Source: Lachnospiraceae bacterium Phil5 (GTDB taxonomy: Bacteria; Bacillota; Clostridia; TANB77; CAG-508). From it: a DNA stretch of 64,000 bases. This document shows positions 10,496-59,560 of this stretch, piece after piece; position 1 is the stretch's first letter; each line of letters opens with the position of its first letter. A program made the translations under genes and the position numbers. The stretch covers positions 209,640 through 273,639 of the forward strand of contig NWBM01000002.1 in NCBI GenBank assembly GCA_002633185.1. Direction: 5' to 3'. Under the pieces are notes generated by a model. It was not told the DNA's origin. It was given only the letters and a program-made list of their open reading frames with translations, and made no database searches.

Positions 10496-10723
10496 ATGGT
10501 GGGGAAGATGGATTTATTAGAAGCACAATTATCAGAAATGTTAATGAGATTAAATTTGAAAGCAAAAGAATATCAGCTTCTTTGTAAAGAGTTTGAAAAA
10601 TTACAAGATGAAGATATAAAAGATAATGATTCAAAACTTGTACAATTAAAAGATAAGTTTGAGAATAATCAAAAAGAGATAGAGGAAATAAATAAAAAGA
10701 TAGAAGAATTAATAAGAAAATAA
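10496..10723 (+). CDS. small coiled-coil protein (start uncertain, 10496 or 10508)
   Basis: ATG overlaps the stop of the LRR gene. Heptad-like, E/K/L-rich sequence. Confidence 0.45.
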   Translation: MVGKMDLLEAQLSEMLMRLNLKAKEYQLLCKEFEKLQDEDIKDNDSKLVQLKDKFENNQKEIEEINKKIEELIRK

Positions 10724-10914
10724 GAGAAGATGCACTCAACAATTAAGTTGGGTGTATTTTTTTTGAAGCAATAAAGATGTACATAACAAGTTGACGCGTC
10801 GAAGATTATTTTAAATTTATGTAAAGAAAACACTTGTTTTACTTTTATCACTATGGTATAATAACAGAGTATTAAACAAATAATAAAAATAATTCCATAG
10901 AAAGGATGTTATAC

Positions 10915-23340: not shown

Positions 23341-24159
23341 ATGGGATTATTTAGTAAAAAGTATTGTTGCCTATGTGGCGAAAAAGTTGGATTATTAGGT
23401 GGACTAAAATTAAAAGATGGAGACCTATGTAAAGAATGTAAGAAAAAATTATCTCCATTTTTCGATGATGGAAAAGAATCAACAGTTGAAGATATAAAGA
23501 AACAAATTGCTGCTAGAGAAGAAAATTATAAACAATTAGATAATTTACAAATCAATAAAATATATGGAGAGTTTGGAGTTATATTAATTGATGAAACAAA
23601 TAAAAAGTTTGTTGCAGTAGCAGATACAAGTGATGGTTTGTTTAAATCTCCTAAAGTAGTTAAAAGCATTGAAGACATTAAAGATAAAAATCCTGATATA
23701 ATAGATTTCAAGGATATTGAAGATGTTGATATAAAAATAATTGAAACAACAAGAGAAGAAAAACAAACTATAGATGGACAGCAAGTTAGCTATGATCCAA
23801 AGCATTATACTTATATGATTGGTTTTGATGTAATTATTAAAGTAAATCATCCATATATTAAAACAATAAGAATAAGTCTAAAGAATGGAACTGTACAAAT
23901 TTATAATGAAGGAAGAAGATTAAAAGATGACTATGTAACTGGATTTATAAGAGATAGATTTGGAATAACAAGAGTTGAAGACAGAGCTGTTCACTACGAC
24001 AATTTAACAATACAAAATATTGTATCTAATGCTATGAAAGAAATGCCTGAATATTCATTTGGTTTTAAATGTACATTAAAGAATTATGACAGTATTAGAG
24101 AATATGCTTATTATTTAGCTTTATGTGATGATATAAAAACAACATTATTAAATAAATAA
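23341..24159 (+). CDS. DUF4428-like protein with N-terminal zinc ribbon
   Basis: N-terminus MGLFSKKYCCLCGEKVGLLGGLKLKDGDLCKECKKKLSPFF, which fits my recollection of the DUF4428 pattern. Good SD. Confidence 0.5.
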   Translation: MGLFSKKYCCLCGEKVGLLGGLKLKDGDLCKECKKKLSPFFDDGKESTVEDIKKQIAAREENYKQLDNLQINKIYGEFGVILIDETNKKFVAVADTSDGLFKSPKVVKSIEDIKDKNPDIIDFKDIEDVDIKIIETTREEKQTIDGQQVSYDPKHYTYMIGFDVIIKVNHPYIKTIRISLKNGTVQIYNEGRRLKDDYVTGFIRDRFGITRVEDRAVHYDNLTIQNIVSNAMKEMPEYSFGFKCTLKNYDSIREYAYYLALCDDIKTTLLNK

Positions 24160-24164
24160 TAATT

Positions 24165-24197
24165 TAAATTTCCACTTTTTATAGTGGAAATTTTTTT
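24165..24197 (+). terminator. intrinsic terminator
   Basis: AAATTTCCAC-loop-GTGGAAATTT hairpin followed by a T-run. Confidence 0.65.
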
Positions 24198-24199
24198 GT

Positions 24200-24640
24200 T
24201 TTTGTGCAAAGAAGCGGAAGAGTAGGGGAGGTAGAGGCATTTTGAAAGATAATAAAATAAATTTTAAATAATTTTAATAAATTGATTAAATAAAATTTTT
24301 TCAAAAAAGAAATAGGGAGAATAGACAGAATAAAATTTATACAAATAAAAAAATTTATAAAATAATTAAAATCAAAAAATTAATTTTAAAATTTAAAATT
24401 TAAAATTTTTACAAATTTATTTTTAAAATTTTTATGCGAACATTTGTGTTAAAAATATTTTTTTACAAAATTCTAAAATCTGATTTAAAAATTTTATTTT
24501 TGGATTTTTTTTAAATAAAATTTTATAGTATAAGTTTATAATTAAAATTATATTCAGACGTCTCAAAATCGTTTTTAAGACATTTATATTATTTAGACAT
24601 CAAATTATATATATAAATAATTTCGGATACTATTTTTTTA
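24200..24640. repeat. scrambled AT-rich repeat-derived segment
   Basis: Contains box i TTTTGTGCAAA (24200-24210), inverted box ii GTAGGGGAG (24222-24230) and an inverted box iii-like segment near 24573-24588. Confidence 0.4.
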
Positions 24641-24713
24641 AATAATTAAAACTGGTTATTTCTATGAAAAAAACTGATATAACTTGGGTTTCTAAGGAAC
24701 TCCTAAAAAGTGC

Positions 24714-24886
24714 CAAAATAACAACGCACGAGAATCGATTTTAAGGCGTTTTTAAAAATTAGACATATAGTTTGTTGTTATTAAGATAAACTTAATATAG
24801 CAAAAAGCGTGATATAGCAGTAATTATAAGGTATTAGTTGATATAGGCCTATATATAATTTTTGTCCTACCCCTATTTGCACAAAA
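24714..24886 (-). repeat. short inverted copy of the AT-rich repeat (r2)
   Basis: Inverted box iii at 24714-24778 and inverted box i TTGCACAAAA at 24877-24886, abutting copy c1 head-to-head. Confidence 0.6.
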
Positions 24887-24887
24887 C

Positions 24888-25255
24888 TTTCATTTTGTGC
24901 AATGTTATATTTCGGTTTTTGGTACCCTATATAGAGATAATTTTAAAAATTTTCCTACCTCTCTTCTATCACTTTTTAGCTTCTAACATGTAATTACCAA
25001 AATTAAATTTTATTCATTTTATATTTATTATTTTATTATTCTGATTATATTTTCTTTTCCAAACTCATTTTTTACTTTTTGAAAAATATTTTTATAAATT
25101 TAATTTTTATTTTTAATTTGTAAAAAATTAATCATTATACTAAAAATTACTATTTTTCTCCCCTACTTCTCAAATTCGTTAAAATTCAAGAAATTATAAA
25201 ACAACAAGTTTATATATCTTTTTTATAAAAATGTCTTAAAACTCATCCTTGTTCT
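24888..25255 (+). repeat. AT-rich cassette repeat, copy c1
   Basis: Boxes CTTTCATTTTGTGCAATGTT ... TTATACTAAAAATT.CTATTTT.CTCCCCTACTTCTCAAA ... AAAACAACAAGTTTATAT..CTTTTTTATAAAAATGTCTTAAAA. Confidence 0.8.
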
Positions 25256-25332
25256 TATTAAAATGTATTATAAATAATAAACAAGACTCTCAATTTTGGA
25301 TTGAAAGTCTTGTTTATTTGGTCAGTAATTTT

Positions 25333-25563
25333 TTACTTAATGATATACTTGGCAAGTTCTTTAGCTGCCTTTGCAGATTCCAGTTTGCCACGTTCAATGT
25401 TTCGACGCACGATTGGTAAGTTTCGCATATATTTTGCATTTACCATGCTGCGTATGGCTTTGGGTTTAGACTGCATTGGCTCATCTAAACAAGAATCCCA
25501 TACAAATTCTCTAGGTTCATCTAGACATGGATTCCGAACCATTTTTTGGGGCTTGTTGCTCAT
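25333..25563 (-). CDS. small basic protein (76 aa), third gene of cassette A
   Basis: GAGGTG SD before ATG 25563. No family recognised. Confidence 0.5.
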   Translation of the reverse strand: MSNKPQKMVRNPCLDEPREFVWDSCLDEPMQSKPKAIRSMVNAKYMRNLPIVRRNIERGKLESAKAAKELAKYIIK

Positions 25564-25573
25564 GTCAAACACC

Positions 25574-25759
25574 TCACTTAAATTTATGACGTTTGCTCCT
25601 CATTGTTACAGAACTATCTTGCTTTAACCTGTTAGCTTCATCAAGCTCTTTTTGCAGTCTTGGCAAAGCTCTTTTCTCTGAAGCAATCAGTTCGCCATAC
25701 CGAGGAACATGTACTGTAGCAATTGTAAAGCTGATTTTGGGCTTTTCACTAGTTTCCAT
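25574..25759 (-). CDS. 61-aa basic protein (METSEKPKI...YGELIASEKRALPRLQKEL), paralog of 28729-28914
   Basis: GGAAGG SD before ATG 25759. About 70 percent identical by eye to the cassette B copy. Confidence 0.6.
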   Translation of the reverse strand: METSEKPKISFTIATVHVPRYGELIASEKRALPRLQKELDEANRLKQDSSVTMRSKRHKFK

Positions 25760-25782
25760 AGAATTTACCTTCCATTCATATT

Positions 25783-25995
25783 TTAGCAACAACCATGGGT
25801 TTTAGCCCAAACTGATGCATCTGCATCGTTTTCACGTTGCTTTTTGCATTTTTCAGCTAGTTGTCTGTTCGTTTTTGCAATCTTTTCAGGATCAGCAGGA
25901 ACAACCTTTGCACGTTTTAGTGGAACTCCTGGACATAAATCACGCATTTTTCCATTAGGTAAGTGTATATACCTCTTTTGACGAATTATTTTCAT
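25783..25995 (-). CDS. 70-aa basic protein ending KTHGCC, paralog of 29137-29349
   Basis: GGAGGA SD. MKIIR.KRYIHLPNGKMR.LCPGV is conserved in both copies. Confidence 0.65.
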   Translation of the reverse strand: MKIIRQKRYIHLPNGKMRDLCPGVPLKRAKVVPADPEKIAKTNRQLAEKCKKQRENDADASVWAKTHGCC

Positions 25996-26179
25996 TTACG
26001 TTTCCTCCGAATTTAGGTTGTAAGCAAGTAAGCTGACCTTCTTACTAACTTATGGCTTTGTTAGTGCTGAACACGAATATATGCAAATTCTGCATTATTC
26101 CACTAACCTGGACTATATAAACAGGCTAAGTGCCTGGAATTTATGGATTTATATTATCATCTTTTATGTAAAATGTCAA
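25996..26179 (-). promoter_or_regulatory. island promoter plus conserved structured leader, copy A
   Basis: TTGACA (26174-26179), 17 bp, TAATAT (26151-26156), then a leader of about 150 nt shared with copies B, C and D. Confidence 0.7.
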
Positions 26180-26190
26180 TTTTTTAATTA

Positions 26191-27306
26191 TTATCTTTCT
26201 TCTTCTCGTTCACACAATTCTTTATTATAAACATCTCTTGCACTTTCATATGGTATAAAATTAAAATCAAAATAAGTGTAATACCCTCCTTTAGGTAAAC
26301 TTAAATATGTATTAATTTCATTATTTGCTTTTTCAGAAATTTCATTAATTCTAACTGTTCCATCTTCAGTTAATACTAATGGCACAACATATCTTGTTTT
26401 TGCCTTAACATTTACACAGTATTTATCTTGTATCTTGCTATTACTTTGATACACCGTATTAGCATTTTGGAATTTTTTGAAACTTTCTGATAAATAACTA
26501 TCTTCGCAATTCAAAAACTTATTAATTATTTCACTTTCAGATAAACTATATAAGTCATCAATGGTTAAATATCCCGCATTGTTCATAGATTTACACATAT
26601 CTGCTAAAAATTGCATAACTGTTCTATCTTTATCGCTTACCCATTCAGGCCATAGCTTTGATATAATACTAATATATTCTTCACATACTTCCTTATCTTT
26701 AAATACTAGTTCATCTATTCCATATTCATTTTTTGCAATTGTTATATTATTATATATCTTTCTTATTTTGTCTAATTCCCAAACTCTAAAGAATGTTAAT
26801 CCACTTGCAAATGTATATTCAAATCTATCTGCAGATAATTTTGGTGTATCATTATCTGCTATTGGATATTTTTTATAATCATCTACATCTTGTAATTTTA
26901 TACCATCTCTTTCAAGTAACCACATTATTCTTTTTGAATTTTTAATGATATCTGTTGTTCTTTCTTCAGTAGATTCTTGTGTTTCAGAGTCTCCATTCAT
27001 AAAGTCAATACAGTGTTTGAATACTGGTGTTGCAATATCGTGAAACAATCCTGCTAAAGTTTGTTTTTTATCATGCGTGAAATTCCATATAATAAGTGCA
27101 ACACCTACACTGTGATCTAAATTAGAATACCAGTATTTAACGTTGAAACATTTAGAATAATCTGTTCCACAACTCATACTAATTTTACCTATTCTTTCCA
27201 TTTCTGGAGTATTAATATATTCCAAGAGCCATTCTGGAAATTCTGGCGATAATATACTAAAATATTCTTTTACTTCGTCATTTAAATTATTATAATAGTT
27301 GTTCAT
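26191..27306 (-). CDS. HD-domain phosphohydrolase-family protein (371 aa)
   Basis: The HD signature GLFHDIATPVFKH and an upstream His in the N-terminal half. Own promoter TTGATA, 17 bp, TATAAT near 27340-27370. Confidence 0.7.
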   Translation of the reverse strand: MNNYYNNLNDEVKEYFSILSPEFPEWLLEYINTPEMERIGKISMSCGTDYSKCFNVKYWYSNLDHSVGVALIIWNFTHDKKQTLAGLFHDIATPVFKHCIDFMNGDSETQESTEERTTDIIKNSKRIMWLLERDGIKLQDVDDYKKYPIADNDTPKLSADRFEYTFASGLTFFRVWELDKIRKIYNNITIAKNEYGIDELVFKDKEVCEEYISIISKLWPEWVSDKDRTVMQFLADMCKSMNNAGYLTIDDLYSLSESEIINKFLNCEDSYLSESFKKFQNANTVYQSNSKIQDKYCVNVKAKTRYVVPLVLTEDGTVRINEISEKANNEINTYLSLPKGGYYTYFDFNFIPYESARDVYNKELCEREEER

Positions 27307-27424
27307 TTAAATTACCTCCATCTTTTTTGTATTATATCATAAATATTTTAATATATCAAGAAGCGGATTTAAATGCTGCATAAAAAAAATTTGACATATA
27401 ATATAATGGTGTTATAATAATATT

Positions 27425-27488
27425 AGCATTGTAATGTAACCGATTCATGCTGACAATTGATATGTGTGTGATGACACATATCTTTTTT
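27425..27488 (+). ncRNA. predicted small RNA 1 (module 1)
   Basis: TTGACA (27391-27396), 16 bp, TATAAT (27413-27418). Internal hairpin UAGCAU/AUGCUG and terminator GATATGTGT-loop-ACACATATC plus a T-run. The 5' half is conserved at 31824-31890. Confidence 0.5.
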
Positions 27489-27571
27489 ATATAAAAAAAA
27501 GGTAACAGAATATAAATGATGTATGAAAAATTTTATTTGACATATAATAAGAATGATGCTATAATAATTAT

Positions 27572-27647
27572 AGCTTAAGCAAATGTTGTTTTGTATAACC
27601 ATATAACAACACACTAGATATGTGAGGAGAACACATATCTTTTTTTT
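27572..27647 (+). ncRNA. predicted small RNA 2 (module 1), antisense to the neighbouring small-ORF initiation region
   Basis: TTGACA (27537-27542), 17 bp, TATAAT (27560-27565), and terminator GATATGTG-loop-CACATATC plus T8. 27592-27614 repeats 27780-27804 on the same strand, so it is complementary to the convergent mRNA. Confidence 0.55.
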
Positions 27648-27701
27648 GCTCAAAAAAAGAAACAGAGCAGGGAGAAACTGCTCTGAACTACTATGTAGTT
27701 T

Positions 27702-27800
27702 TTAGTTGTCATTGTTGTTCTGATACTTTTTCAATTCTTCATTTAATCTTGCGATTTCTTGAAGAAGAATCCATATCAATGTATAACCATTTATAACAAT
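27702..27800 (-). CDS. candidate small toxin-like peptide (module 1), start codon unclear (TTG 27779 or ATT 27800)
   Basis: Promoter TTGTAT (27870-27875), 17 bp, TATAAT (27847-27852); SD AAAGGGGG; terminator hairpin 27664-27686. ...GYTLIWILLQEI...NNNDN resembles the module 2 peptide. No canonical ATG in frame. Confidence 0.3.
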   Translation of the reverse strand: MVINGYTLIWILLQEIARLNEELKKYQNNNDN

Positions 27801-27950
27801 ACACCCCCTTTCTTTCAAGGGATTGTCCAAATACATGGACCTTTTAATTATATCGTAAAATCGACTCAAATACAATGACTATTCTGTGAGTTTTGTAATT
27901 TATTTTTCGACATATTTTTTATTAAATAGTAAAAATTTTGTTTCGATATT

Positions 27951-28432
27951 AAAGTGCGACATTTTTCGAAAAACGCATATTTTATTGATACATGTAAAAT
28001 ACATTGTTTGTTTATTTCAATACCGTTTTGGGATTTTTACACTCTTTAATTTTTCTAAACTTATATATAAAATTTACCTCATAGAAAATAGTCTTATTAC
28101 TTTCATTTTGTGCAATGTTTCATATCGGATTTTGATACCCTGTATCATGTAATTTACAAAATTTAATTTTATTCATTTTATATTTATTATTTAATATTTT
28201 ATTATATTTTCTAGGTTAGATTTTGTTTTCCAAACTTATTTTTACTTTTTTACTTTAAAAAATTATTTTATATAATTTCTTTTTATTTTTTAATTTATAA
28301 AAATTTAATCATTATACTAAAAATTGCTATTTTACTCCCCTACTTCTCAAACTCATTAAAATTTAAGAAATTATAAAACAACAAAGTTATATGTCTTTTT
28401 TATAAAAATCTCTTAAAATCCATCCTCGTTTC
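27951..28432 (+). repeat. AT-rich cassette repeat, copy c2 (with ~150-bp 5' extension shared with c5)
   Basis: Same three boxes. The extension AAAGTGCGACATTTTT...TTCTAAACTTATATATAAAATTTACCTCATAGAAAATAGTCTTATTAC is near-identical to 34239-34388. Confidence 0.8.
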
Positions 28433-28524
28433 TATAATATAGGAAACTATTTAACGTTTAACCATATAACAAAATAGAGTATTTACTGTAAAGTAAGTAC
28501 TCTATTTATAGGTCAGTTGTTAAA

Positions 28525-28719
28525 TTAGTCTGAATATGTTTCATCGGCAATTTTCATTGCTGTTTGTGATTCTGTTCGGTGTTGCTTAGCTGAACGTGAT
28601 ACTCTCTCGTTTATACGCTCTGCAGTTTGAACATCTAAGCTTTCAATTCTAATAGTTCTGCCTTTGCAAGATTTCTTTTTAAGAAGAGAGCCAGAGCTAT
28701 ATTTGTTTTTATCTTCCAT
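28525..28719 (-). CDS. 64-aa hypothetical protein (cassette B, last gene)
   Basis: AGGAGGGA SD. Unrelated to the cassette A third gene. Confidence 0.55.
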   Translation of the reverse strand: MEDKNKYSSGSLLKKKSCKGRTIRIESLDVQTAERINERVSRSAKQHRTESQTAMKIADETYSD

Positions 28720-28728
28720 ATGTCCCTC

Positions 28729-28914
28729 CTATTTCCTTTTACGATGTCGACTCATCATGGTTCTATGGCTTTCCACCTTTAACCGATTAGCGTCGTTAAG
28801 TTCTTTTTGCAATCTTGGTAAAGCTCTTTTTTCACTAGCAATAAGCTCACCATAACGATGACAAGGAATTACAGCTTTCATTGATTCAATCTTGGGTTTC
28901 TCACTAGTTTCCAT
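28729..28914 (-). CDS. 61-aa basic protein, paralog of 25574-25759
   Basis: GGAGGG SD and conserved YGELIASEKRALPRLQKEL. Confidence 0.6.
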   Translation of the reverse strand: METSEKPKIESMKAVIPCHRYGELIASEKRALPRLQKELNDANRLKVESHRTMMSRHRKRK

Positions 28915-28920
28915 CAGAAT

Positions 28921-29118
28921 TTACCCTCCATTAACAAAATGTTTGAATTGCTTTTTTACTGCCGCATTATTTGCTTCTGTCTGAATTGATATTTGGTTTT
29001 CAAGAAAATAAGCTGCTTTTGATGATATCTGTCCTTTAGGTGGTTCAATAATTTTTCTTGTGCTGCTGGATTGCAGAAGTTCTTTAGGTATAAACCGTTT
29101 TATATTAGAGTCTTTCAT
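28921..29118 (-). CDS. 65-aa hypothetical protein (present only in cassette B)
   Basis: AGGAGG SD. No family recognised. Confidence 0.5.
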   Translation of the reverse strand: MKDSNIKRFIPKELLQSSSTRKIIEPPKGQISSKAAYFLENQISIQTEANNAAVKKQFKHFVNGG

Positions 29119-29136
29119 ATAGATACCTCCTAAGCA

Positions 29137-29349
29137 TCAACAGCAACCATGAGTTTTAGTCCAAACTTTTGCTTCAGCATCATTCTCACGTTGCTTTTTG
29201 CATTTTTTAGCTAGTTTTTTGTTCGTTTTGGCTATCTTTTCAGGATCAGCAGGAATAACTTTTGCGCCTTTTATTAGAACTCCTGGACATAACTCCCGCA
29301 TTTTTCCATTAGGTAAGTGAATATACCTTTTGGGGCGTATAATTTTCAT
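29137..29349 (-). CDS. 70-aa basic protein ending KTHGCC, paralog of 25783-25995
   Basis: AGGAGG SD. More than 80 percent identical by eye to the cassette A copy. Confidence 0.65.
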   Translation of the reverse strand: MKIIRPKRYIHLPNGKMRELCPGVLIKGAKVIPADPEKIAKTNKKLAKKCKKQRENDAEAKVWTKTHGCC

Positions 29350-29536
29350 TAATGTATCCTCCTAATTTAAGGTTGTAAGCAAAGTAAGCTGACCTTCTTA
29401 CTTGCTATGGCTTTGTTAGTGCTGAACACGAATATCTGCAAATTCTGCATTATTCCACTAACGCTTACTATATGTAAACAGGCTGTTTGCCTGGAATTTA
29501 TGGGATTATATTATCATCTTTTATGTAAAAAGTCAA
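29350..29536 (-). promoter_or_regulatory. island promoter plus conserved structured leader, copy B
   Basis: TTGACT (29531-29536), 17 bp, TAATAT (29508-29513), then the conserved leader. Confidence 0.7.
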
Positions 29537-29630
29537 TTTTTCTATTGTGCTCTTACCAACAAGAATCTTTTGTATTTCGCTTTTTTGACTTTTATCGGAA
29601 TTTCCGACAAAAGATTAATGATTTTATTAA

Positions 29631-29670
29631 TAAAATAAAAAAGCCTAAAATTTTATATATTTCAGGCTTC
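29631..29670 (-). terminator. intrinsic terminator downstream of the Abi remnant
   Basis: AAGCCT-loop-AGGCTT hairpin with a T-run on the minus strand. Confidence 0.55.
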
Positions 29671-29673
29671 AGA

Positions 29674-29712
29674 ATGACTTAGAGCTTCTAGAGTTTTCTA
29701 AGTACCGTTCAT
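29674..29712 (-). repeat. structured direct repeat X1 flanking the Abi remnant
   Basis: ATGAACGGTAC-TTAG-AAAACTCTAGAAGCT-CTAA-GTCAT on the minus strand. The partner copy at 30360-30398 has compensatory stem changes. Confidence 0.55.
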
Positions 29713-29731
29713 TATTATTATATTCTAGTTT

Positions 29732-30321
29732 TTAATTATTATTCAAAGGAAAGCCCATTACAGATAAAATTGCATCTATTTTTATAGAATGTAAATTTTC
29801 TTTAAGTTTATCTATTTCATCATTTATAGAATTGCATAAATCTTTATATTGATCCTTTGTTAGTAGCTTTTCCATACATCTAATTACCATATATAAGTTA
29901 GTTATATTATCTGATTTTTCATAGTCCTTATCAATAAGTTTAAATGAAAGATAAAATTTACTAGTATAACTATATAATCTATCAGAGTGGGCTGCAATAT
30001 TTCTTACAGTAGATAAGTTTTTTAGTATTTGTTTTAATAACTTATCTGATATTCTAAAATACTTTGCAACTGCTTGTCTATCACTTTGCTTTAAAAGTCC
30101 ATAATAACTACTTGCTACTCCAAATGTAAGAACCTTTGTTAGAACAAATGGTGGTACAAATCCATATTTGTTTATGTAATGTGTTACTGCAGTATGAGTA
30201 TTATAATCCTTTTCGATTTCTGCATTTATTTTATTAAGCAAATTTTCTTTTATATTATTATTCTTACGCCTTTTGACTCCAAATAATCTATTAATTCTTC
30301 GTTAGTTCTATATTCTTTCAT
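29732..30321 (-). pseudogene. Abi_2 (AbiD/AbiF-like) abortive-infection gene remnant
   Basis: The 169-aa ORF carries FG....YY and VRNIAAHSDRLY, typical of Abi_2. A 23-aa N-terminal piece (MKEYRTNEELIDYLESKGVRIII, 30250-30321) lies in another frame, and the expected ~100 aa between the two pieces is missing. Confidence 0.6.
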
Positions 30322-30359
30322 TAAATAGTTAAACTCTCCTTGCTTTTATAGTAAAAAAA

Positions 30360-30398
30360 ATGACCCAAGGCTTCGAAAGTTTCTTGGATACCGCTCAT
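30360..30398 (-). repeat. structured direct repeat X2
   Basis: ATGAGCGGTAT-CCAAG-AAACTTTCGAAGC-CTTGG-GTCAT followed by T8, with a promoter-like TTGCTA, 17 bp, TATTAT just upstream. Confidence 0.55.
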
Positions 30399-30470
30399 AT
30401 ATATAATAGCATATTTTAAAGTAATTAGCAAGTACCTTTTATGAAAATGTTATGATTTTTGGAAACAATA

Positions 30471-30748
30471 CTTTCATTTTGTGCAATGTTATATTTCTCT
30501 TTTTGAGATGCTCCATTTCTAAATTTATATCCCTTCTCCATCATTCTTATATATAAATTTATTAAATTCTTTAAATGTTTTTTTAATTTAATTTTCATTT
30601 ATTAATTATTTTTGCTTCTCAAAATATTTTTCTCTTCAACTTAGTTTCTAATATAAAAAATTATTTTTGTAAATTTTAATTTTAAAATTTATATTAATTT
30701 AGTAATTTTAAAAAATCAACTTTTTACTCCCCTACTTCCTGAATCGCT
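30471..30748 (+). repeat. AT-rich cassette repeat, copy c3 (divergent, lacks box iii)
   Basis: CTTTCATTTTGTGCAATGTTATATTTC ... TTTTTACTCCCCTACTTCCTGAA. Confidence 0.7.
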
Positions 30749-30820
30749 AATATTTATTCATACTAAATAACGCAAAACGGAGTCTTATCCTCTAAGACTC
30801 CGTTTTGCGGCTGAAATAAA

Positions 30821-30874
30821 TTAACCGCCTGCTTCCTTATCAGCCACAATACCAGCATAAGCAATACCAGACAT
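30821..30874 (-). CDS. 17-aa ORF (MSGIAYAGIVADKEAGG) in a mini-cassette
   Basis: GAGAGGAAG SD, a perfect upstream promoter and a 16-bp-stem hairpin downstream (30772-30808). Coding status is unproven. Confidence 0.3.
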   Translation of the reverse strand: MSGIAYAGIVADKEAGG

Positions 30875-30976
30875 ATTGACTTCCTCTCAATCGTTAATTC
30901 TTTACAGCAAGTGTCTGAACACGAGCTTTTAAGCTCACACTACGATAATTATATAGCATAATATGTTCAATGTCAA
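30875..30976 (-). promoter_or_regulatory. consensus promoter plus short leader related to the island leader
   Basis: TTGACA (30971-30976), 17 bp, TATAAT (30948-30953). The leader shares CGTGTTCAG.CAC with leaders A-C. Confidence 0.5.
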
Positions 30977-30989
30977 ATAAGGACTTTTT

Positions 30990-31050
30990 TATTACATTCA
31001 TTATACTAAAAATTGCTATTTTATTCCCCTACTTCTTAAGTTTAGTGATA
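30990..31050 (+). repeat. AT-rich repeat fragment (box ii only), c3b
   Basis: CATTATACTAAAAATTGCTATTTTATTCCCCTACTTCTTAAG. Confidence 0.7.
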
Positions 31051-31112
31051 TTTTTTATAACAAATAAGAGTTTTCGGTTCAGTACGAAAACTCTTATAAA
31101 TATTTGATAATT

Positions 31113-31604
31113 CTACTTATCCCATGAACCAACAACAAAATATGGCACACCATCTATATTCCTATAGTAAACTCTGAAACCATAGGGCTCGCGAGATAAA
31201 ACCTGGACAATACCGACAATAACAATTTGAAACAAATCGTTTATCACTCTGATATCTGAGCCACAATATCCTTCGTGTGCAGTCAACAGTTCATCGAGAT
31301 TTTTTCCCCGAATTCCATTCTTGTCATCAGAAAACTTTGCTTCAAGCTTCTCAATAAGTTCTGTATCATCTTTATAACTGCTTGGAAACTTAATACTTGA
31401 GAACCGACCGTCGGCATCTTTGTCAAAAACTTCATCAAAAATATCTGCAAGTTTGAACTTACGCTCATTTCCTAAAAATCTTTCAGTTACCGGCAGATTT
31501 GCTTTTTCGAAGTGCTTAAGCACGATCTCAAGAAATGCCACTTTTTCAACAGAGCACCCTACATTATAAAGCAAGTAATCGGCTTTGAATATGCGATTAT
31601 ACAT
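31113..31604 (-). CDS. 163-aa hypothetical protein (cassette C cargo)
   Basis: GGAGGA SD and terminator hairpin at about 31055-31085. No family recognised. Confidence 0.6.
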   Translation of the reverse strand: MYNRIFKADYLLYNVGCSVEKVAFLEIVLKHFEKANLPVTERFLGNERKFKLADIFDEVFDKDADGRFSSIKFPSSYKDDTELIEKLEAKFSDDKNGIRGKNLDELLTAHEGYCGSDIRVINDLFQIVIVGIVQVLSREPYGFRVYYRNIDGVPYFVVGSWDK

Positions 31605-31779
31605 ATTTTTTCCTCCAATTATGGTTAGGCAAGTTTTTTTCTTAACTTGTATGGGCTTTGTTAGTGCTGAACACGAATATGCAAATTCTGCATTATTCCA
31701 CTAACGCTTACTATATGTAAACAGGCTGTTTGCCTGGAATTTATGGATTTATATTATCATCTTTTATGTAAAATGTCAA
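31605..31779 (-). promoter_or_regulatory. island promoter plus conserved structured leader, copy C
   Basis: TTGACA (31774-31779), 17 bp, TAATAT (31751-31756). Back-to-back with the sRNA1 promoter at 31790. Confidence 0.7.
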
Positions 31780-31823
31780 TTTATATGATTTGACATATAA
31801 TTAAATGGTGTTATAATAATATT

Positions 31824-31890
31824 AGCATTGTAGTGTAACCGATTTATAGTAATGCTTGATATGTGTGTGATGACACATATCTCTTTTTTT
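31824..31890 (+). ncRNA. predicted small RNA 1 (module 2)
   Basis: TTGACA (31790-31795), 16 bp, TATAAT (31812-31817). Same 5' sequence ATTAGCATTGTA.TGTAACCGATT and the same terminator stem as module 1. Confidence 0.5.
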
Positions 31891-31969
31891 ATAAAAATAT
31901 TAGATACACATAAATAAGGTATGAAAAATTTTATTTGACATATAATAAGAATGATGCTATAATAATTAT

Positions 31970-32037
31970 AGCTTAAGCAAATCATAGGATGTCACAAGAT
32001 TTGCATCGAGATATGTTCGTCGCATATCTCTTTTTTT
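31970..32037 (+). ncRNA. predicted small RNA 2 (module 2), antisense to the neighbouring small-ORF initiation region
   Basis: TTGACA (31935-31940), 17 bp, TATAAT (31958-31963), and terminator GAGATATG-loop-CATATCTC plus a T-run. 31982-32005 matches 32159-32182 at 19 of 24 positions on the same strand. Confidence 0.55.
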
Positions 32038-32082
32038 ATTTTAATTCAAAAGAAAAAGGCGGTCGTCGTCCGCCTTCAAAGA

Positions 32083-32172
32083 TTATTCTTTGTTTGTGCC
32101 TTGGTTTTCATTATCATTATTACTTAAAAGCAATAAGACAATTAATCGCCAGATTAGCTCATAGGATGTCAT
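32083..32172 (-). CDS. 29-aa hydrophobic peptide MTSYELIWRLIVLLLLSNNDNENQGTNKE, type I toxin candidate (Fst-like architecture)
   Basis: Promoter TTGTAT (32247-32252), 17 bp, TATAAT (32224-32229); SD GGGAGGTG; ATG 32172; terminator AAGGCGG-loop-CCGCCTT (32057-32077). Convergent with sRNA2. Confidence 0.45.
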   Translation of the reverse strand: MTSYELIWRLIVLLLLSNNDNENQGTNKE

Positions 32173-32358
32173 TCCTTTTGCACCTCCCTTCTGCAGGGAT
32201 TGTCCAAATACATGGACCTTTTAATTATATCGTAAAATTGACTCAAATACAATGACTATTCTGTGAATTTTGTAATTTGTTTTTCTAATAATATGTCGAA
32301 AAATGACATTTCGATAACTATTTTCAGCTTGTTATTTTTGTATTATAAAATGTCCGAT

Positions 32359-32725
32359 TTCTTTCATTTTGTGCAATGTTATGTTTCGGATTTTGGTATA
32401 CTCTATATCGATAAATTTAGAAATTTTTGTACCCCCTTCTATAGTTATTATATATTTATATATGATTATTAAAAATTATTTTTTATTACTATTTATATTT
32501 ATTGTTTTATTTTTTCTAATTATATTTTCTGTTTTAGATTTTCTTTTCCATAATTATTTTTAATTTTAAAAATTATTTTATAAATTTTATTTTTGTTTTT
32601 AAAAATTTATTCATTATACTAAAAATTCTTATTTTTCTCCCCTACCTCTTAAATTCATTAAAATTTAAGAAATTATAAAACAACAAGTTATATGTCTTTT
32701 TTATAAAAATGCATTAAAATGCATT
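32359..32725 (+). repeat. AT-rich cassette repeat, copy c4
   Basis: All three boxes are present. The ORF-track ORFs here are not frame-conserved between copies. Confidence 0.8.
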
Positions 32726-32770
32726 TCCATAAGTTTGTCAATAAGAAAAATATATTAATATGTAGTTTCA

Positions 32771-33088
32771 TTAAAATACTTCATACGTCGGATATTTTAA
32801 CAGTAAACTTTCATCATTTAAGTCAATTTTTTTATTATATAATAATTTGTAAAAATAGTCTTTTGAGATTAATTGTTTATATACTATATCTATTTTTTCT
32901 TCATTTATTTCTAACGCCTTCAAAAGCTGATAGGCTCTTTTTTGAGTAATCTTAAAAAAAAGAGCTTCATCTTTTAACATATTTCTTATTTCAAGATTTA
33001 TAGTGCAATCTACTCCATTATTAGTTTTAAAATCAATATTTGTTTCATTCATAATATTAATACATTCAAAAATATTTACATCATCCAT
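32771..33088 (-). CDS. 105-aa hypothetical protein, translationally coupled to the upstream gene
   Basis: AAGGAG SD before ATG 33088. The ATGGATGA overlap spans the stop of 33081-34112. Confidence 0.55.
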   Translation of the reverse strand: MDDVNIFECINIMNETNIDFKTNNGVDCTINLEIRNMLKDEALFFKITQKRAYQLLKALEINEEKIDIVYKQLISKDYFYKLLYNKKIDLNDESLLLKYPTYEVF

Positions 33089-34112
33089 AATAAACAATCT
33101 CCTTTGCAATTTCGCTTCTATTTTTATTTGGTAAATACAGTCCATCTTGAATATTATCAAAAAACTTTCTTGAACTAATTAATTCTACACCTAATGAATT
33201 TATTATTATGTAATTCATATTCCAAGCTATATATAAAGTTTGAATATATTTATCGCCAACTTTTAGCCAAATCTTTTTAGGTTCATAACCTTTAAGTTCA
33301 AGTATAGGCTTTATATATTTAAATACTCCATCATTACCAGCATTCTTTGTTTTGCTTAGCAAAATATTCATCCACTCATATTCACCATTTTTTTCAAAAT
33401 CTTCCATAATTTCTTTTTCAAACTCTTTTTTAGGCTTTCTATTTAAATTGAATTTATCAACTGCTTTCTTAACAATGTCTTTTTCATCATTAACAATTGT
33501 AATTCCTTTTATTTCTAATCCTAATTTTGCTCTATTTAAATCTTCACCTTTTACAAAATCATCACAATCAATAGTAATCATGAAATCGTCACATATAATA
33601 CCTGTAGCATAATGAGACTCATATTCATCAGATACCAAAAAAATATCGCATTCTTCATTCGTTAATTGTTTCATTCTAAAAGCAAAATATCTAGATAATT
33701 CAAAACATATTCTCCTATTATGTTTTTTTCTCTCTTCTATCCATCTGCTATTGGGATTTCTTCCATATTTTTGGTCAATAGTGCATATATTTTTCTCTCT
33801 ATCATATTTTCCTAAAAAATAACAAAATTCATCAAAAACAAAATGTTCACATACCATACAATGAACTATTAAGATTTTTTCAATTAAGCTTAGTTGATCC
33901 AAACCTTCGATTTCATGTATTTTATCTACAATTGAATCATCTTCTGTTTTCCAAGCCACATAATCATATTGTATTCTTGAATCACCTATTTCTTCTTGAT
34001 CTTCAGGATCAACTTTTATTTTACACCAGTTCATATGATTTGTAATTCTTTTTAATGCCTCTAGAAATTCTTTTCTCTTTTCTTCTTTGTTCATTAGTTT
34101 TTTATCCTCCAT
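33081..34112 (-). CDS. ~340-aa hypothetical protein, weak transglutaminase-like Cys-His-Asp pattern (start probably ATG 34094)
   Basis: RRICFELSRYF ... SHYATGI ... ITIDCD spacing recalls transglutaminase-fold cysteine proteases. This is inference only. Confidence 0.55.
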   Translation of the reverse strand: MEDKKLMNKEEKRKEFLEALKRITNHMNWCKIKVDPEDQEEIGDSRIQYDYVAWKTEDDSIVDKIHEIEGLDQLSLIEKILIVHCMVCEHFVFDEFCYFLGKYDREKNICTIDQKYGRNPNSRWIEERKKHNRRICFELSRYFAFRMKQLTNEECDIFLVSDEYESHYATGIICDDFMITIDCDDFVKGEDLNRAKLGLEIKGITIVNDEKDIVKKAVDKFNLNRKPKKEFEKEIMEDFEKNGEYEWMNILLSKTKNAGNDGVFKYIKPILELKGYEPKKIWLKVGDKYIQTLYIAWNMNYIIINSLGVELISSRKFFDNIQDGLYLPNKNRSEIAKEIVYYG

Positions 34113-34238
34113 ACAATAACTTTTATTTTAATTATATTCTAAATTAAAATAAAAAAAATGGCAATATAGCTTTTAAGTATTTTTACAATAATTTCTTCGT
34201 AACAAATTATAAGTGAGCAGTATTATAATAGTCATATT

Positions 34239-34760
34239 AAACTGCGACATTTTTGCAAATTGCATGTTTTATTCATACAGGTGAAAATGTCCTACGTGCT
34301 TATTTCAATACTATTTTGAGATTTTTACATTTCTTAAATTTTCTAAACTTATATATAAAATTTACCTCATAGAAAATAGTCTTATTACTTTCATTTTGTG
34401 CAATGTTGTATTTCGGTTTTTGGTATGCTCTGTATTGATTAATTTTAAAATTTTTGTACCTCTCTTCTATCTTTATTATATATTTATATGTAATTGTTAT
34501 AAATTATCTTTTATCTAAATTTATATTTATTGTTTTGATTTTTCTAATTACATTTTCTATATTAGATTTTCTTTTCTAAACTTATTTTTATTATTTAAAT
34601 ATTATTTTATAAATTTTATTTTTAATTTATAAAAAATAATCATTATACTAAAAATTGCTATTTTACTCCCCTATTTCTCAAATCCATTAGAATTAAAGAA
34701 ATTATAAAACAATACAAACATATATGCTTTTTCTGTATAAAAGTCTTAAATTGATTTAAA
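34239..34760 (+). repeat. AT-rich cassette repeat, copy c5 (with 5' extension shared with c2)
   Basis: All boxes plus the extension. Confidence 0.8.
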
Positions 34761-34873
34761 AGATGATGAACTTGGATTTAGTAACAATAAAAAAGACAGA
34801 ACAAAAAATATTTCACTCTGTCTTTTTTCAATTATTCAGTTTCTTAGAATTTTTAATTGTATGAAAATATTTC

Positions 34874-35554
34874 CTATATTTTAGTAACACTTGAAGAAAT
34901 CATTATATCAGTTTCTAACATATTAATGGTAAAACGCACTTCATAATCTTCTTCATAATCTTCCCTTGTGGTACTCACCACACAGCATTCATCACAAACC
35001 TCTATACCATTAATAATACAATTATCCGTATCAATGTCAACATAAGTATAGTGTTCACAATCGTTAGTTGCTAAAATATACTTCTCTGTATAGAAGATTA
35101 AAAGCCCTTCACTTGAGAGAACAAGCTTCGGTTTTTTCAGCAACATTTTGAATATATTGTAGTTAGAAATTATATTGTGTCTTCCGATGTTGTCTGTGAT
35201 GTAAGCTACAGTAGTTGGTCCTACAAATTCAAATGGCATTTCTCTTTTCTTAATTGAAAAACGTTTTCCTTCGCAGACAGTTGATATAGTAATATTTTGG
35301 ATAAATCCATTAAGTCTGCAAGGAGATTCCAGCCCTGAATCTGAATTGCAACAATATACAACAATCGGGTATTCGCTGCAATACTGATAAATGTCATTAC
35401 CATCTACCAAAACTAATGAGTTTTCCTCAAACTGCTCCCATTCTTTCTCTGAAACAATACTTTCAGCACACATGGTAACTTGAGAATTTTCAATATACAC
35501 GTCTTCAGAGAACTCAATTACTCGTTCTACAATTGGAAATTTTTTCTTTTCCAT
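34874..35554 (-). CDS. 226-aa Cys-rich hypothetical protein (cassette E cargo)
   Basis: GGAGGGA SD and terminator hairpin at about 34790-34830. No family recognised. Confidence 0.6.
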   Translation of the reverse strand: MEKKKFPIVERVIEFSEDVYIENSQVTMCAESIVSEKEWEQFEENSLVLVDGNDIYQYCSEYPIVVYCCNSDSGLESPCRLNGFIQNITISTVCEGKRFSIKKREMPFEFVGPTTVAYITDNIGRHNIISNYNIFKMLLKKPKLVLSSEGLLIFYTEKYILATNDCEHYTYVDIDTDNCIINGIEVCDECCVVSTTREDYEEDYEVRFTINMLETDIMISSSVTKI

Positions 35555-35755
35555 ACCATCCCTCCAAATTATTGGTTAGCAAGTGTAATTGTTATTTACA
35601 ACTTGCATGGGCTTTGTTAGTATGCTGAACTCACACTAACTCTTACTTATATATCACTTGTTCTGAAACGCGGACTATCCAGTTCAACAAGTGAACCACA
35701 GGCATTTGCCTGGAATTTATGGATTTATACTACCACAGTTTTATGCAAATGTCAA
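35555..35755 (-). promoter_or_regulatory. island promoter plus conserved structured leader, copy D (variant with an extra hairpin)
   Basis: TTGACA (35750-35755), 17 bp, TAGTAT (35727-35732). Shares the 5' AAATCCATAAATTCCAGGCAAATGCCTG and GTTAGTG..ACTAACAAAGCCCAT segments. Confidence 0.65.
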
Positions 35756-35767
35756 ATAAATATTAAA

Positions 35768-36373
35768 TTAGTCATCTATTACATTTATTATTTGTTCTTT
35801 TGAAATAGGACCTTCTCTTAATATTTTAAGTTCATCCAAACTGCAATCGACTATTGTACTACTTTTACCAAAAACAACATTTCCATCCATCATTCCGTTA
35901 ATCATTGGACAAGCCTTTTCTATTTCATCTAAATTTGTACATGTTGGTTCTCCGCTTCTGTTAGCACTTGTCATAAACACTGGGCTTTCTGTCTTTCTAA
36001 TTAAATCCTCTAGTGCTTTTGAAGTTGCCATTCTAACCGCAATAGTATCTTTTCCATTACTTACATAACTAGGTAATTTACTATTCTTTTTTAATATAAG
36101 TGTTATTGGTCCTGGCATAAAAGCATGTATTAACTTCTCTGCATTTTTATTAACTATTGCAATGCTTCTTATTTGTTCTTCATCAGCACACATAATTGGA
36201 AAAGATTTTATTTTAGGGCGATTCTTTACTTCCATTAATCTATCATGTGCTTTCTTTGAACTTATTCTTGCACATATACCATAAACAGTATCTGTTGGAA
36301 CGCTAATTACGCCATCATTTTTTAATATATTAGCTAAATCATCAGTTTTATTTTGTTTATATCTTTCTATCAT
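35768..36373 (-). CDS. tsaC: L-threonylcarbamoyladenylate synthase (YrdC/Sua5 family)
   Basis: 201 aa with PTDTVYG, K.RP and SAN.SG motifs of the YrdC domain. Confidence 0.85.
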   Translation of the reverse strand: MIERYKQNKTDDLANILKNDGVISVPTDTVYGICARISSKKAHDRLMEVKNRPKIKSFPIMCADEEQIRSIAIVNKNAEKLIHAFMPGPITLILKKNSKLPSYVSNGKDTIAVRMATSKALEDLIRKTESPVFMTSANRSGEPTCTNLDEIEKACPMINGMMDGNVVFGKSSTIVDCSLDELKILREGPISKEQIINVIDD

Positions 36374-36489
36374 TTTTAACTTCCTTTTTGATTCTCTATC
36401 ATATCAAGCATTCTTATATGATATTAATCCTATTATTTTATCATTATCTTCGTATAATAATATTTTACCATTACATTTTTTTATTTCAG

Positions 36490-36633
36490 TTATGGTTTTT
36501 CAAAATATTTTTCTTTATAATCTTCTCCTACTATGTTATATCCTTCTTTGTCTATATCAGTTAAATATTGTTGTAATTCTTCTAATAAATATTTTATTTG
36601 ATTATCATATTTTGGATTATACTCAATTATCAT
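36490..36633 (-). pseudogene. possible remnant of a small acetyltransferase-like gene (47-aa ORF plus out-of-frame continuation)
   Basis: SD GAAAGGA before ATG 36633. The frame stops at 36490 and a second frame continues ...CNGKILLYEDNDKIIGLISYKNA. Weak evidence. Confidence 0.25.
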
Positions 36634-59200: not shown

Positions 59201-59212
59201 TTCTTGATATAT

Positions 59213-59560
59213 AATAAGTAAATCTATAAGCCGGGTTCTGTCTTGAATAGTCATTTATCTAGTACATATATTACTATATGCCTCAAGCCACCTCAGTTTG
59301 AAGATGACGAGCAGTCTTAGCCTTCAATTAGGGTGTTGCTCCAGATGGGGTTTACACTGTCCCAGTATGTCACCATACCGGCGGTGAGCTCTTACCTCGC
59401 CTTTTCATCCTTACCTACTAATGTAGGCGGTTATTTTCTGTTGCACTTTCCTTAAGGTTTCCCTCACTGGACGTTATCCAGCATCATTGCTCTGTGGAGC
59501 CCGGACTTTCCTCGTACGCTTTCTTTCGAAATTGCTATACGCGACTATTCAATTTACTCT
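59213..59560 (-). ncRNA. rnpB: RNase P RNA, bacterial type A
   Basis: The minus strand contains GAGGAAAGTCCGGGCTCCACAGAGC (P4 5' strand), GGTAAGAGCTCACCGCCGG and ACAGAACCCGGCTTAT (P4 3' strand). Terminal P1/P2 pairing: AGAGTAAATTGAATAGTC with GACTATTCAA...ATTTACTT. Ends are accurate to about 5 nt. Confidence 0.93.

Follow-up and report, generated by a model that had tools for sequence, protein, structure and literature searches.

Binding of the two RNAs of the par locus of Enterococcus faecalis pAD1 starts at complementary terminator loops and spreads to the repeats DRa and DRb; the DRa/DRb pairing hides the Shine-Dalgarno (SD) sequence together with the start codon, the SD being masked until then by a 5' stem-loop (PMC7472228). 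In Escherichia coli, the small RNA (sRNA) genes agrA and agrB run divergently from dinQ, and a single dinQ segment is complementary to each of the two sRNAs, over 25/31 and 30/31 nt (PMC3567139). The type I RNAs of Clostridioides difficile overlap extensively, their toxins are 34-59 amino acids (aa) long with lysine-rich tails, and their genes lie in prophages or by CRISPR arrays (PMC6563280). In this study, we compare with these systems a locus from Lachnospiraceae bacterium Phil5, found in a stretch of 64,000 nt (assembly GCA_002633185.1, contig NWBM01000002.1, positions 209,640 to 273,639), which we call the window and whose positions we use throughout. In this locus, here module 2, two tandem sRNA genes on the plus strand (sRNA1 and sRNA2) converge with the gene of a 29-aa peptide on the minus strand; a paralogue in the same window is module 1. 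We read module 2 as a par-like, type I toxin-antitoxin-like cassette and give the full toxin-antitoxin statement a probability of roughly 0.6. The reading draws on observed sequence features, on complementarity that covaries at three sites, and on purifying selection acting on the peptide. The pairing changes in step across related genomes, and for this reason we regard the module as a genuine relative of type I toxin-antitoxin systems that had not been filed before, with a presumed toxic peptide.

The elements named in a preliminary description of the locus are all present: two plus-strand sRNA genes, each with a consensus promoter and an intrinsic terminator, and a minus-strand promoter, SD, 29-aa open reading frame (ORF) and terminator, all of them confirmed by the sequence (31400-32700), the ORF list and a promoter/terminator scan taken together (Table 1). 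The 3' ends of sRNA2 and of the peptide mRNA are likewise as close as had been claimed, ~10 nt apart and without overlap. The same description had drawn attention to an in-register identity of 19 of 24 positions between the variable segment of sRNA2 (31982-32005, TCATAGGATGTCACAAGATTTGCA) and 32159-32182 (TCATAGGATGTCATTCCTTTTGCA), and this count is exact, with 13 identical positions followed by 5 different and 6 identical ones; by chance, ~4e-4 exact same-strand matches of at least 13 nt would be expected between the two short segments. The mRNA partner of the first resulting block reaches from the UG of the AUG to codon 5, and that of the second is GGUGCAAA, that is, the 3' part of the SD and the spacer (8 bp when the G-U pair is counted). 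RNAcofold places the intermolecular pairs on the mRNA of module 2 at G34-A41 (3' part of the SD plus spacer) and at U47-U62 (G of the start codon to codon 6), and in this model a ribosome could not bind the region paired with sRNA2. When the whole window was scanned for duplexes with sRNA2 (8526 windows), the translation start region was among the two best sites outside the antisense strand of the sRNA gene itself. Very probably, sRNA2 represses the mRNA of module 2 by pairing.

Further members of the family put this single case into perspective. Module 1 has the same layout as module 2; the two share P1 with sRNA1, P2 with the initial 12 nt of sRNA2, and 91 nt that comprise the mRNA promoter and the 5' untranslated region (UTR) and are 97% identical, and they differ in the middle segment of sRNA2, in the peptide gene and in both loops of the terminators. 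A scan of a genome collection with the 5' UTR motif returned two rabbit-gut Clostridia metagenome-assembled genomes (MAGs; loci L003 and L004), and a metagenome scan with the sRNA promoter motif returned the contigs L005 to L009. Across window modules, rabbit-gut MAGs and metagenome contigs there are at least five specificity types. The peptides are of two types: type A comprises MTSYELIWRLIVLLLLSNNDNENQGTNKE in module 2, MTSYELISQLIILLLLKNNNDIDETKRD in L006 and, in L007 and L009, a methionine encoded by TTG followed by SSFDLIWRLIVLLLLSNNKNDESQNSQD; type B comprises ..GYTLIWILLQEIARLNEELKKYQNNNDN in module 1 and L005 and ..GYLLVWLLLQKIEKLEEELAKYQRNNDKN in L003 and L004.

Although the sequences differ across modules, the variable part of the adjacent sRNA in every case fits the start region of translation on the mRNA of its own module. 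We scored all sRNA x mRNA combinations by ΔΔG, the RNAcofold energy of the dimer minus the energies of both monomers; full-length RNAduplex scores discriminate poorly, as U-tails pair with the purine-rich SD, and cofold ΔΔG was used instead. The check proposed at the outset, RNAcofold of sRNA2 with the peptide mRNA, gives a cognate ΔΔG of -19.6 kcal/mol for module 2, next to -20.2 kcal/mol for module 1, -18.8 kcal/mol for L003, -20.0 kcal/mol for L006 and -17.4 kcal/mol for L007. Non-cognate values are mostly 0 to -5 kcal/mol, so that the matrix has a clean diagonal and each sRNA binds best to its own mRNA. Shuffled 5' parts of the sRNAs equal cognate binding in 0-1 of 150 trials per cognate pair (1/150 for sRNA2). 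Absence of the complementarity from homologous loci had been named beforehand as a finding that would speak against the interpretation; this check turned out in favor of it, the complementarity being retained in all five module types despite their differing recognition sequences.

A third contact had been missed by the preliminary description. The cognate mRNA of each sRNA has a terminator of its own, and the loops of the two terminators are complementary, a complementarity that covaries over the five module types (6-8 nt for cognate and ≤4 nt for non-cognate pairs, except for the closely related L006/L007 pair). In module 2, the complementarity of the sRNA2 loop to its own mRNA is perfect over 6 nt, compared to 2-3 nt for mRNAs from the other modules. 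The corresponding sRNA loops are GGAGAA in module 1, GUGAUGA in L003 and L004, UGACCA in L006 and GUUGACCA in L007. The stems of the two terminators are unrelated, and therefore only a loop-loop kiss is possible; the loop contact may act as a kissing complex.

These three contacts suggest how the cassette might work. A moderately strong promoter would make a transcript of ~170 nt that carries a 5'-terminal hairpin, an anti-SD hairpin and the 29-aa peptide, and a consensus promoter would make sRNA2 (~68 nt), probably in excess. First contact would be the kissing of the terminator loops, UCGUCG with CGACGA, after which the two blocks (13 nt and 6-8 nt) would pair with the stretch between the SD edge and codon 5 of the mRNA; this pairing would keep ribosomes from binding and may open the duplex to RNase III. 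Were the supply of sRNA2 to stop, the peptide would be made, most likely with membrane damage or growth arrest as the outcome. sRNA1 stands outside this pair and looks like a stacked antitoxin gene with a different specificity, that for the type-B toxin mRNA. The scheme supposes that the RNAs are transcribed, and it supposes their relative levels, the order of binding and the toxicity of the peptide.

Table 1. Positions in the window of the elements of module 2, of its paralogue and of the surrounding repeats
Feature	Position	Strand	Details
P1, sRNA1 promoter	31790-31817	+	TTGACA, 16-nt spacer, TATAAT, extended -10 TG; sigma-70 consensus 12/12
sRNA1, ~67 nt	31824-31890	+	5' hairpin and terminator
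sRNA1 terminator	stem 31858-31881	+	loop GUGAUG
P2, sRNA2 promoter	31935-31963	+	TTGACA, 17-nt spacer, TATAAT, extended -10 TG; sigma-70 consensus 12/12
sRNA2, ~68 nt, proposed antitoxin	31970-32037	+	conserved 5' AGCUUAAGCAA, recognition hairpin, terminator
sRNA2 recognition block 1, UCAUAGGAUGUCA	31982-31994	+	13-nt exact repeat of 32159-32171
sRNA2 recognition block 2, UUUGCAUC	32000-32007	+	6-nt exact repeat of 32177-32182 (32000-32005)
sRNA2 terminator hairpin	32008-32030	+	followed by U-run
sRNA2 terminator loop, UCGUCG	32017-32022	+	proposed kissing-loop contact
Loop contact of module 2	32017-32022 with 32063-32068		sRNA UCGUCG with CGACGA
Peptide mRNA terminator	32077-32055	-	GC-rich; loop ACGACGA (plus strand 32063-32069)
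Peptide gene, 29 aa, MTSYELIWRLIVLLLLSNNDNENQGTNKE, proposed toxin	32083-32172	-	from ORF list
mRNA target site	32159-32184	-	translation start region, SD 3' edge to codon 5
Shine-Dalgarno, GGGAGGUG	32181-32188	-	8-nt spacing to AUG
Anti-SD hairpin in 5' UTR, UCCCU...AGGGA	32185-32199	-	in minimum-free-energy and centroid folds
mRNA 5'-end hairpin, GUCCAUGUAUUUGGAC	32202-32217	-	transcription start site inferred from -10 position
mRNA promoter	32252-32224	-	TTGTAT (32252-32247), 17-nt spacer, TATAAT (32229-32224)
Module 1, paralogue	27389-27908		sRNA1, sRNA2 with other recognition sequence, type-B peptide gene
Repeat A copies	24860-25250, 28009-28420, 30470-30740 (+30952-31070), 32300-32720, 34297-34720
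Repeat B copies	26040-26182, 29395-29540, 31640-31782, 35700-35755	-

Six terminator-like sites lie in the 3-kb region, compared to 0.6 expected from shuffles. P1 is nearly identical at module 1 (from 27392), L003, L004 and L005; P2 is identical between the two window modules, and the same promoter type is present in L005 to L009. The predicted sRNA transcripts start ~7 nt after P1 or P2, and each is short and ends in a hairpin with a U-run. In the predicted folds, every sRNA has a 5' hairpin, with the recognition sequence in its loop and 5' arm, and then the terminator; the fold of sRNA2 (-17.7 kcal/mol, z -3.5) presents a 14-nt loop, AUAGGAUGUCACAA, closed by GCAAAUC/GAUUUGC. The mRNA promoter is weaker than the sRNA promoters, with a -35 hexamer that matches at only 3/6 positions and is hence unlisted by the promoter scan; a TTGTAT or TTGTTT hexamer is also found in the mRNA promoters of L007 and L006. 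On the mRNA, the SD (GGGAGGTG) lies 8 nt upstream of the peptide ATG, the sequence of the 5'-end hairpin is 100% conserved in module 1, L003 and L004, and the predicted fold (z = -4.9) includes the anti-SD hairpin. The 5' UTRs of L006 and L007 are unrelated to this one and likewise pair with the SD.

The peptide itself has a putative hydrophobic N-terminal helix followed by an acidic, Asn-rich polar tail. Over codons 1-19 of the type-A genes, module 2 and L007 share 8 identical codons and differ by 8 synonymous and 3 conservative changes, and overall there are 8 synonymous versus 3-4 nonsynonymous, mostly conservative changes; the synonymous excess argues that the peptide gene is real and under purifying selection. 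The putative type-B peptide genes are conserved at the protein level, with 8 synonymous versus 8 nonsynonymous changes between module 1 and L003. The best 11-aa Kyte-Doolittle mean is 2.78 for the module 2 peptide and 2.89 for Fst.

Several observations weigh against a toxin-antitoxin cassette. (i) The hydrophobic core of the peptide spans only 11 aa (L6-L16), with Arg9 or Gln9 inside it, and no stretch without a charged or strongly polar residue exceeds 7-8 aa, compared to 15 in Fst; with a core so short and interrupted, membrane insertion is uncertain. (ii) The type-B relatives are amphipathic, not hydrophobic, and lack an in-frame ATG or GTG. (iii) Five peptides searched against Pfam and NCBIfam gave no match for type A at E<=10, the sole match being a weak one to DUF1192 (E 0.14) for one type-B peptide, and Rfam returned no toxin-antitoxin RNA family, either over 24000-36500 at E<=10 or for the related loci at E<=1; at gathering thresholds, Rfam finds only RNase P in the whole window. 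(iv) The family is seen only in a handful of gut- or rumen-type contigs in one motif scan each of a genome collection and of metagenomes, and no member was found in the plasmid, phage and viral collections, where blastn of the module against plasmids and phages gave short chance matches or none, tblastn of the peptide against plasmids gave no match, and viral contigs scanned with the conserved motifs gave 0 matches. (v) A second site, 7361-7420 on the minus strand, forms, in a plain duplex scan, a duplex with the 5' part of sRNA2 that is as strong as that of the true target (-33.4 compared to -33.2 kcal/mol). This site is antisense to a 651-aa ORF (5783-7738); it is probably not transcribed and likely a chance match.

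Some of these points lend themselves to a different explanation, in which the sRNA-mRNA pair is real and the peptide is no toxin, acting instead as a small membrane-associated or regulatory protein that is tuned by antisense RNA and has no function in addiction or growth arrest. A short and interrupted core, type-B relatives that are amphipathic, coiled-coil-like peptides, and the lack of a match to a known toxin family would all fit, as would the position of several copies beside core genes, with uvrB adjoining in L006 and, in L008, a probable seryl-tRNA synthetase gene that we recognized by eye, from the C-terminal sequence. We nevertheless consider this rather unlikely. The combination of features is that known from type I toxin-antitoxin systems; a perfect-consensus sRNA promoter is set against a weaker mRNA promoter, the SD is sequestered and pairing involves three sites. 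Multiple paralogues have diverged, each with a private specificity, one of them (L005) has lost its mRNA promoter, and mobile-element remnants lie nearby.

On the missing type-B start codon, the type-B gene of module 1 (27650-27810, minus strand) has a 4-codon upstream ORF, ATGGTTATACATTGA, at SD distance, whose TGA overlaps an in-frame TTG, and in the type-B gene of L003 the upstream ORF has 14 codons and lies in another frame. A conserved frameshift was considered as the cause and rejected, as the frame offsets differ between module 1 and L003. A further sRNA gene of the family lies at L008 22-67, directly after the presumed seryl-tRNA synthetase gene, and has a different 5' sequence (AGCTAGCAAATTCGTAA...); the contig ends there.

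The preliminary description had treated both tandem sRNAs as one module with the peptide, and this stands for sRNA2, with its cognate pairing, and fails for sRNA1, which is not a partner of the local mRNA. The two sRNA genes lie in tandem and have promoter, 5' end and terminator scaffold in common, as might be expected if both acted jointly on the local mRNA in the way that agrA and agrB both match dinQ. With the mRNA of module 2, however, sRNA1 has a ΔΔG of 0.0, 137/150 shuffles bind as well, and the loops match over only 2 nt; joint action is thus largely refuted by computation and very improbable. The sequence of sRNA1, its recognition region and its loop are instead those of the single sRNA in the type-B modules L003 and L004, and its terminator loop, GUGAUG, has a 7-nt match to the mRNA loop of these modules. 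The ΔΔG of sRNA1 from module 2 is -13.4 kcal/mol with the L003 mRNA and -15.6 kcal/mol with the module 1 mRNA, and the module 1 copy of sRNA1 reaches -24.2 kcal/mol with the L003 mRNA. The duplex of the module 2 copy with the module 1 mRNA has 22 bp including G-U pairs, and 3/150 shuffles are as good. By these values, sRNA1 of module 2 has drifted towards the module 1 mRNA; as the duplex comes without a loop match, we regard such cross-talk as tentative.

The signals of the sRNA1 gene, a near-consensus promoter and a terminator, are intact in module 1, module 2 and L005 (perfect in both window modules, with one spacer change in L005), which argues for stacked orphan antitoxins rather than debris; sRNA1 looks like such an orphan, with type-B (L003-like) specificity. 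A target for it was sought in the window, which contains no AATCGGTTAC site, and a duplex scan gave only the antisense strands of the sRNA genes themselves. Pairing of sRNA1 with the conserved 5' UTR hairpin was considered and rejected for lack of significant complementarity.

Module 2 combines sequences of different origin. The segment 31933-32156, which contains P2, sRNA2 and both terminators and extends to the ORF, is 70% identical to the whole L007 module, and the mRNA promoter, 5' UTR and sRNA1 belong to the type-B lineage, so that module 2, by its sequence, is a recombinant chimera of two lineages. Its chimeric nature might also be taken to mean that the module is an inactive recombination remnant in a decaying island, its elements out of use, and this would go along with the truncated AbiD gene and repeat debris of the island and with an sRNA1 that has no local target. 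We regard such inactivity as improbable, since all signals are intact (two 12/12 promoters, three terminators, SD, ATG and an open ORF) and the three pairing blocks are matched within module 2, a matching that decay would erode. Moreover, the sequence of module 2 is identical in two further MAG assemblies, found via a neighboring 163-aa gene on two short contigs that are identical to the window and therefore say nothing about variation.

Decay of the family can be seen in L005 (reverse-complement, ~2720-2740), a module 1-like copy with a deletion of ~57 nt that removes the mRNA -10 box and the whole region of the 5' UTR hairpin and leaves both sRNA genes intact. Here the peptide gene looks inactivated and the antitoxins kept. 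Loss of toxin expression first is the usual decay route of such modules, and the pattern in L005 is the one to be expected if the peptide were harmful. Traces of mobile elements accompany two copies outside the window: a split IS481-like transposase (helix-turn-helix and rve_3; 1363-2006) in L003, where IS481-like remnants flank the module, and a fragmented large serine recombinase (10395-11267) near the module in L007.

The window is chromosomal, as RNase P RNA, rho and Sua5 are present in it; the bacterial class A RNase P RNA lies at 59211-59560 (minus strand, 274.8 bits). Both window modules lie within a repeat-rich variable island that carries the truncated AbiD gene, a 169-aa ORF (29732-30241, minus strand) whose match to AbiD/Abi_2 is confined to the C-terminal part (profile positions 119-270 of 277) and which is thus a truncated abortive-infection gene. 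Directly upstream of module 1, a 371-aa protein is encoded at 26191-27306 (minus strand), with only a sub-threshold match to an HD domain. An AT-rich intergenic repeat of ~400 nt, repeat A, with the cores TTTCATTTTGTGCAATGTT and ..CTCCCCTACTTC.., occurs in five copies (Table 1) and separates single-gene minus-strand cassettes between core genes, namely a DUF4428 gene (23341-24159) on one side and Sua5 and rho (from 35768) on the other. By its sequence organization, the repeat A region is a variable island that resembles a cassette array, and we saw no integrase in it. In L003 and L004, too, the modules adjoin the 5' part of repeat A. Repeat B consists of a minus-strand promoter (TTGACA, 17-nt spacer, TAATAT or TAGTAT) and a conserved leader of ~150 nt with the motifs AUAAAUUCCAGGCAAA..GCCUG and ACUAACAAAGCC and predicted hairpins, and it precedes four unrelated genes or gene pairs. 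No Rfam family matches repeat B, of which L005 has a further copy; repeat B may represent a cassette promoter or a cis-regulatory leader not yet described.

A wider reading of these data ties several suppositions together and is, taken jointly, doubtful. The family would be a modular, reprogrammable RNA lock-and-key, with a constant sRNA scaffold (promoter, 5' AGC..., terminator stem) and three exchangeable address segments that co-evolve with three mRNA sites; stacked antitoxins of foreign specificity would form an anti-addiction array that neutralizes incoming toxin modules; the modules would stabilize the repeat-bounded cassette island; and recombination at the scaffold would yield chimeras such as module 2. 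Apart from this wider reading, the modules represent a new peptide and sRNA family, with no hit in Pfam, NCBIfam and Rfam, from uncultured gut Clostridia, a group in which, to our knowledge, C. difficile is essentially the sole source of known type I systems. They suggest that a shared terminator is dispensable for the three-contact logic of par, with one loop kiss and two blocks in the start region. With at least five orthogonal sRNA/mRNA specificities built on a single scaffold, the family offers a natural series in which to study the evolution of antitoxin specificity, and the same series might be used as orthogonal translational repressors for Firmicutes. Finally, the stacked sRNA of foreign specificity raises the idea that RNA antitoxins may confer immunity to related toxin modules.

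How the locus relates to par had been the central claim of the preliminary description, and that claim needs to be divided. The convergent promoters, the two dispersed repeats, the anti-SD hairpin and the terminator-loop contact bear it out; the terminators are separate, and the peptide is not an Fst homologue. As in par, with its Fst mRNA RNA I and its antitoxin RNA II, the promoters converge (P2 on the plus strand and the mRNA promoter on the minus strand), the antitoxin is a small sRNA, and complementary terminator loops would make the first contact. Likewise, two dispersed direct repeats cover the SD and start codon (31982-31994/32159-32171 and 32000-32005/32177-32182), an intramolecular 5' stem-loop hides the SD and the extreme 5' end is structured, the peptide has a hydrophobic N-terminal part and an acidic tail, and the interaction sequences differ between paralogues, preventing cross-talk. 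Unlike in par, there is no shared bidirectional terminator here, its place being taken by two separate hairpins ~25 nt apart with unrelated stems, and a second sRNA gene of different specificity is stacked upstream. Unlike Fst, the peptide has no PXXXG motif, no Pro or Gly in its hydrophobic domain and a much shorter hydrophobic stretch, and there is no match to fstAT in Rfam. Module 2 thus appears, on the sequence evidence, to be par-like in its regulatory logic, but it does not belong to the Fst/Ldr family.

Other type I systems share single traits with the locus. The type I modules of C. difficile, such as CD2517.1-RCd8, likewise come from the class Clostridia and have a small peptide gene convergent with an sRNA as well as a link to mobile elements (PMC6563280). 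Unlike in the C. difficile modules, the RNAs of module 2 do not overlap, the tail of the 29-aa peptide is acidic and rich in Asn, and the viral and phage collections searched yielded no homologue. Compared to TxpA and BsrG of Bacillus, the transcripts lack a 3' overlap, and the peptide has no family match to TxpA, BsrG or BsrE. Its N-terminal pattern M-[TS]-x-[YF]-[ED]-x-[LI] resembles MSTYESL and MTVYESL, which we take to be N termini of TxpA/BsrG-type peptides, a resemblance that serves as a lead, not as a test. In tisB/istR-1, zorO/orzO and shoB/ohsC, type I systems of enterobacteria without overlap, the antitoxin gene likewise lies beside the toxin gene, not opposite to it, with short imperfect-to-perfect complementarity in the 5' part of the mRNA; unlike module 2, these pairs are divergent and Gram-negative, with unrelated peptides. 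We know of no terminator-loop contact described for these three pairs.

The arrangement of two sRNA genes brings the locus closest to dinQ-agrAB. In both, two tandem sRNA genes lie beside a small peptide gene without overlapping it, only one of the sRNAs is an effective antitoxin, and each sRNA gene has consensus-like promoter elements and a terminator (PMC3567139). Unlike in dinQ-agrAB, the genes of module 2 are convergent, sRNA1 fits a different type of toxin mRNA, and signs of LexA control are lacking. The nearest precedent for a tandem pair in which a single sRNA acts against the toxin is dinQ-agrAB.

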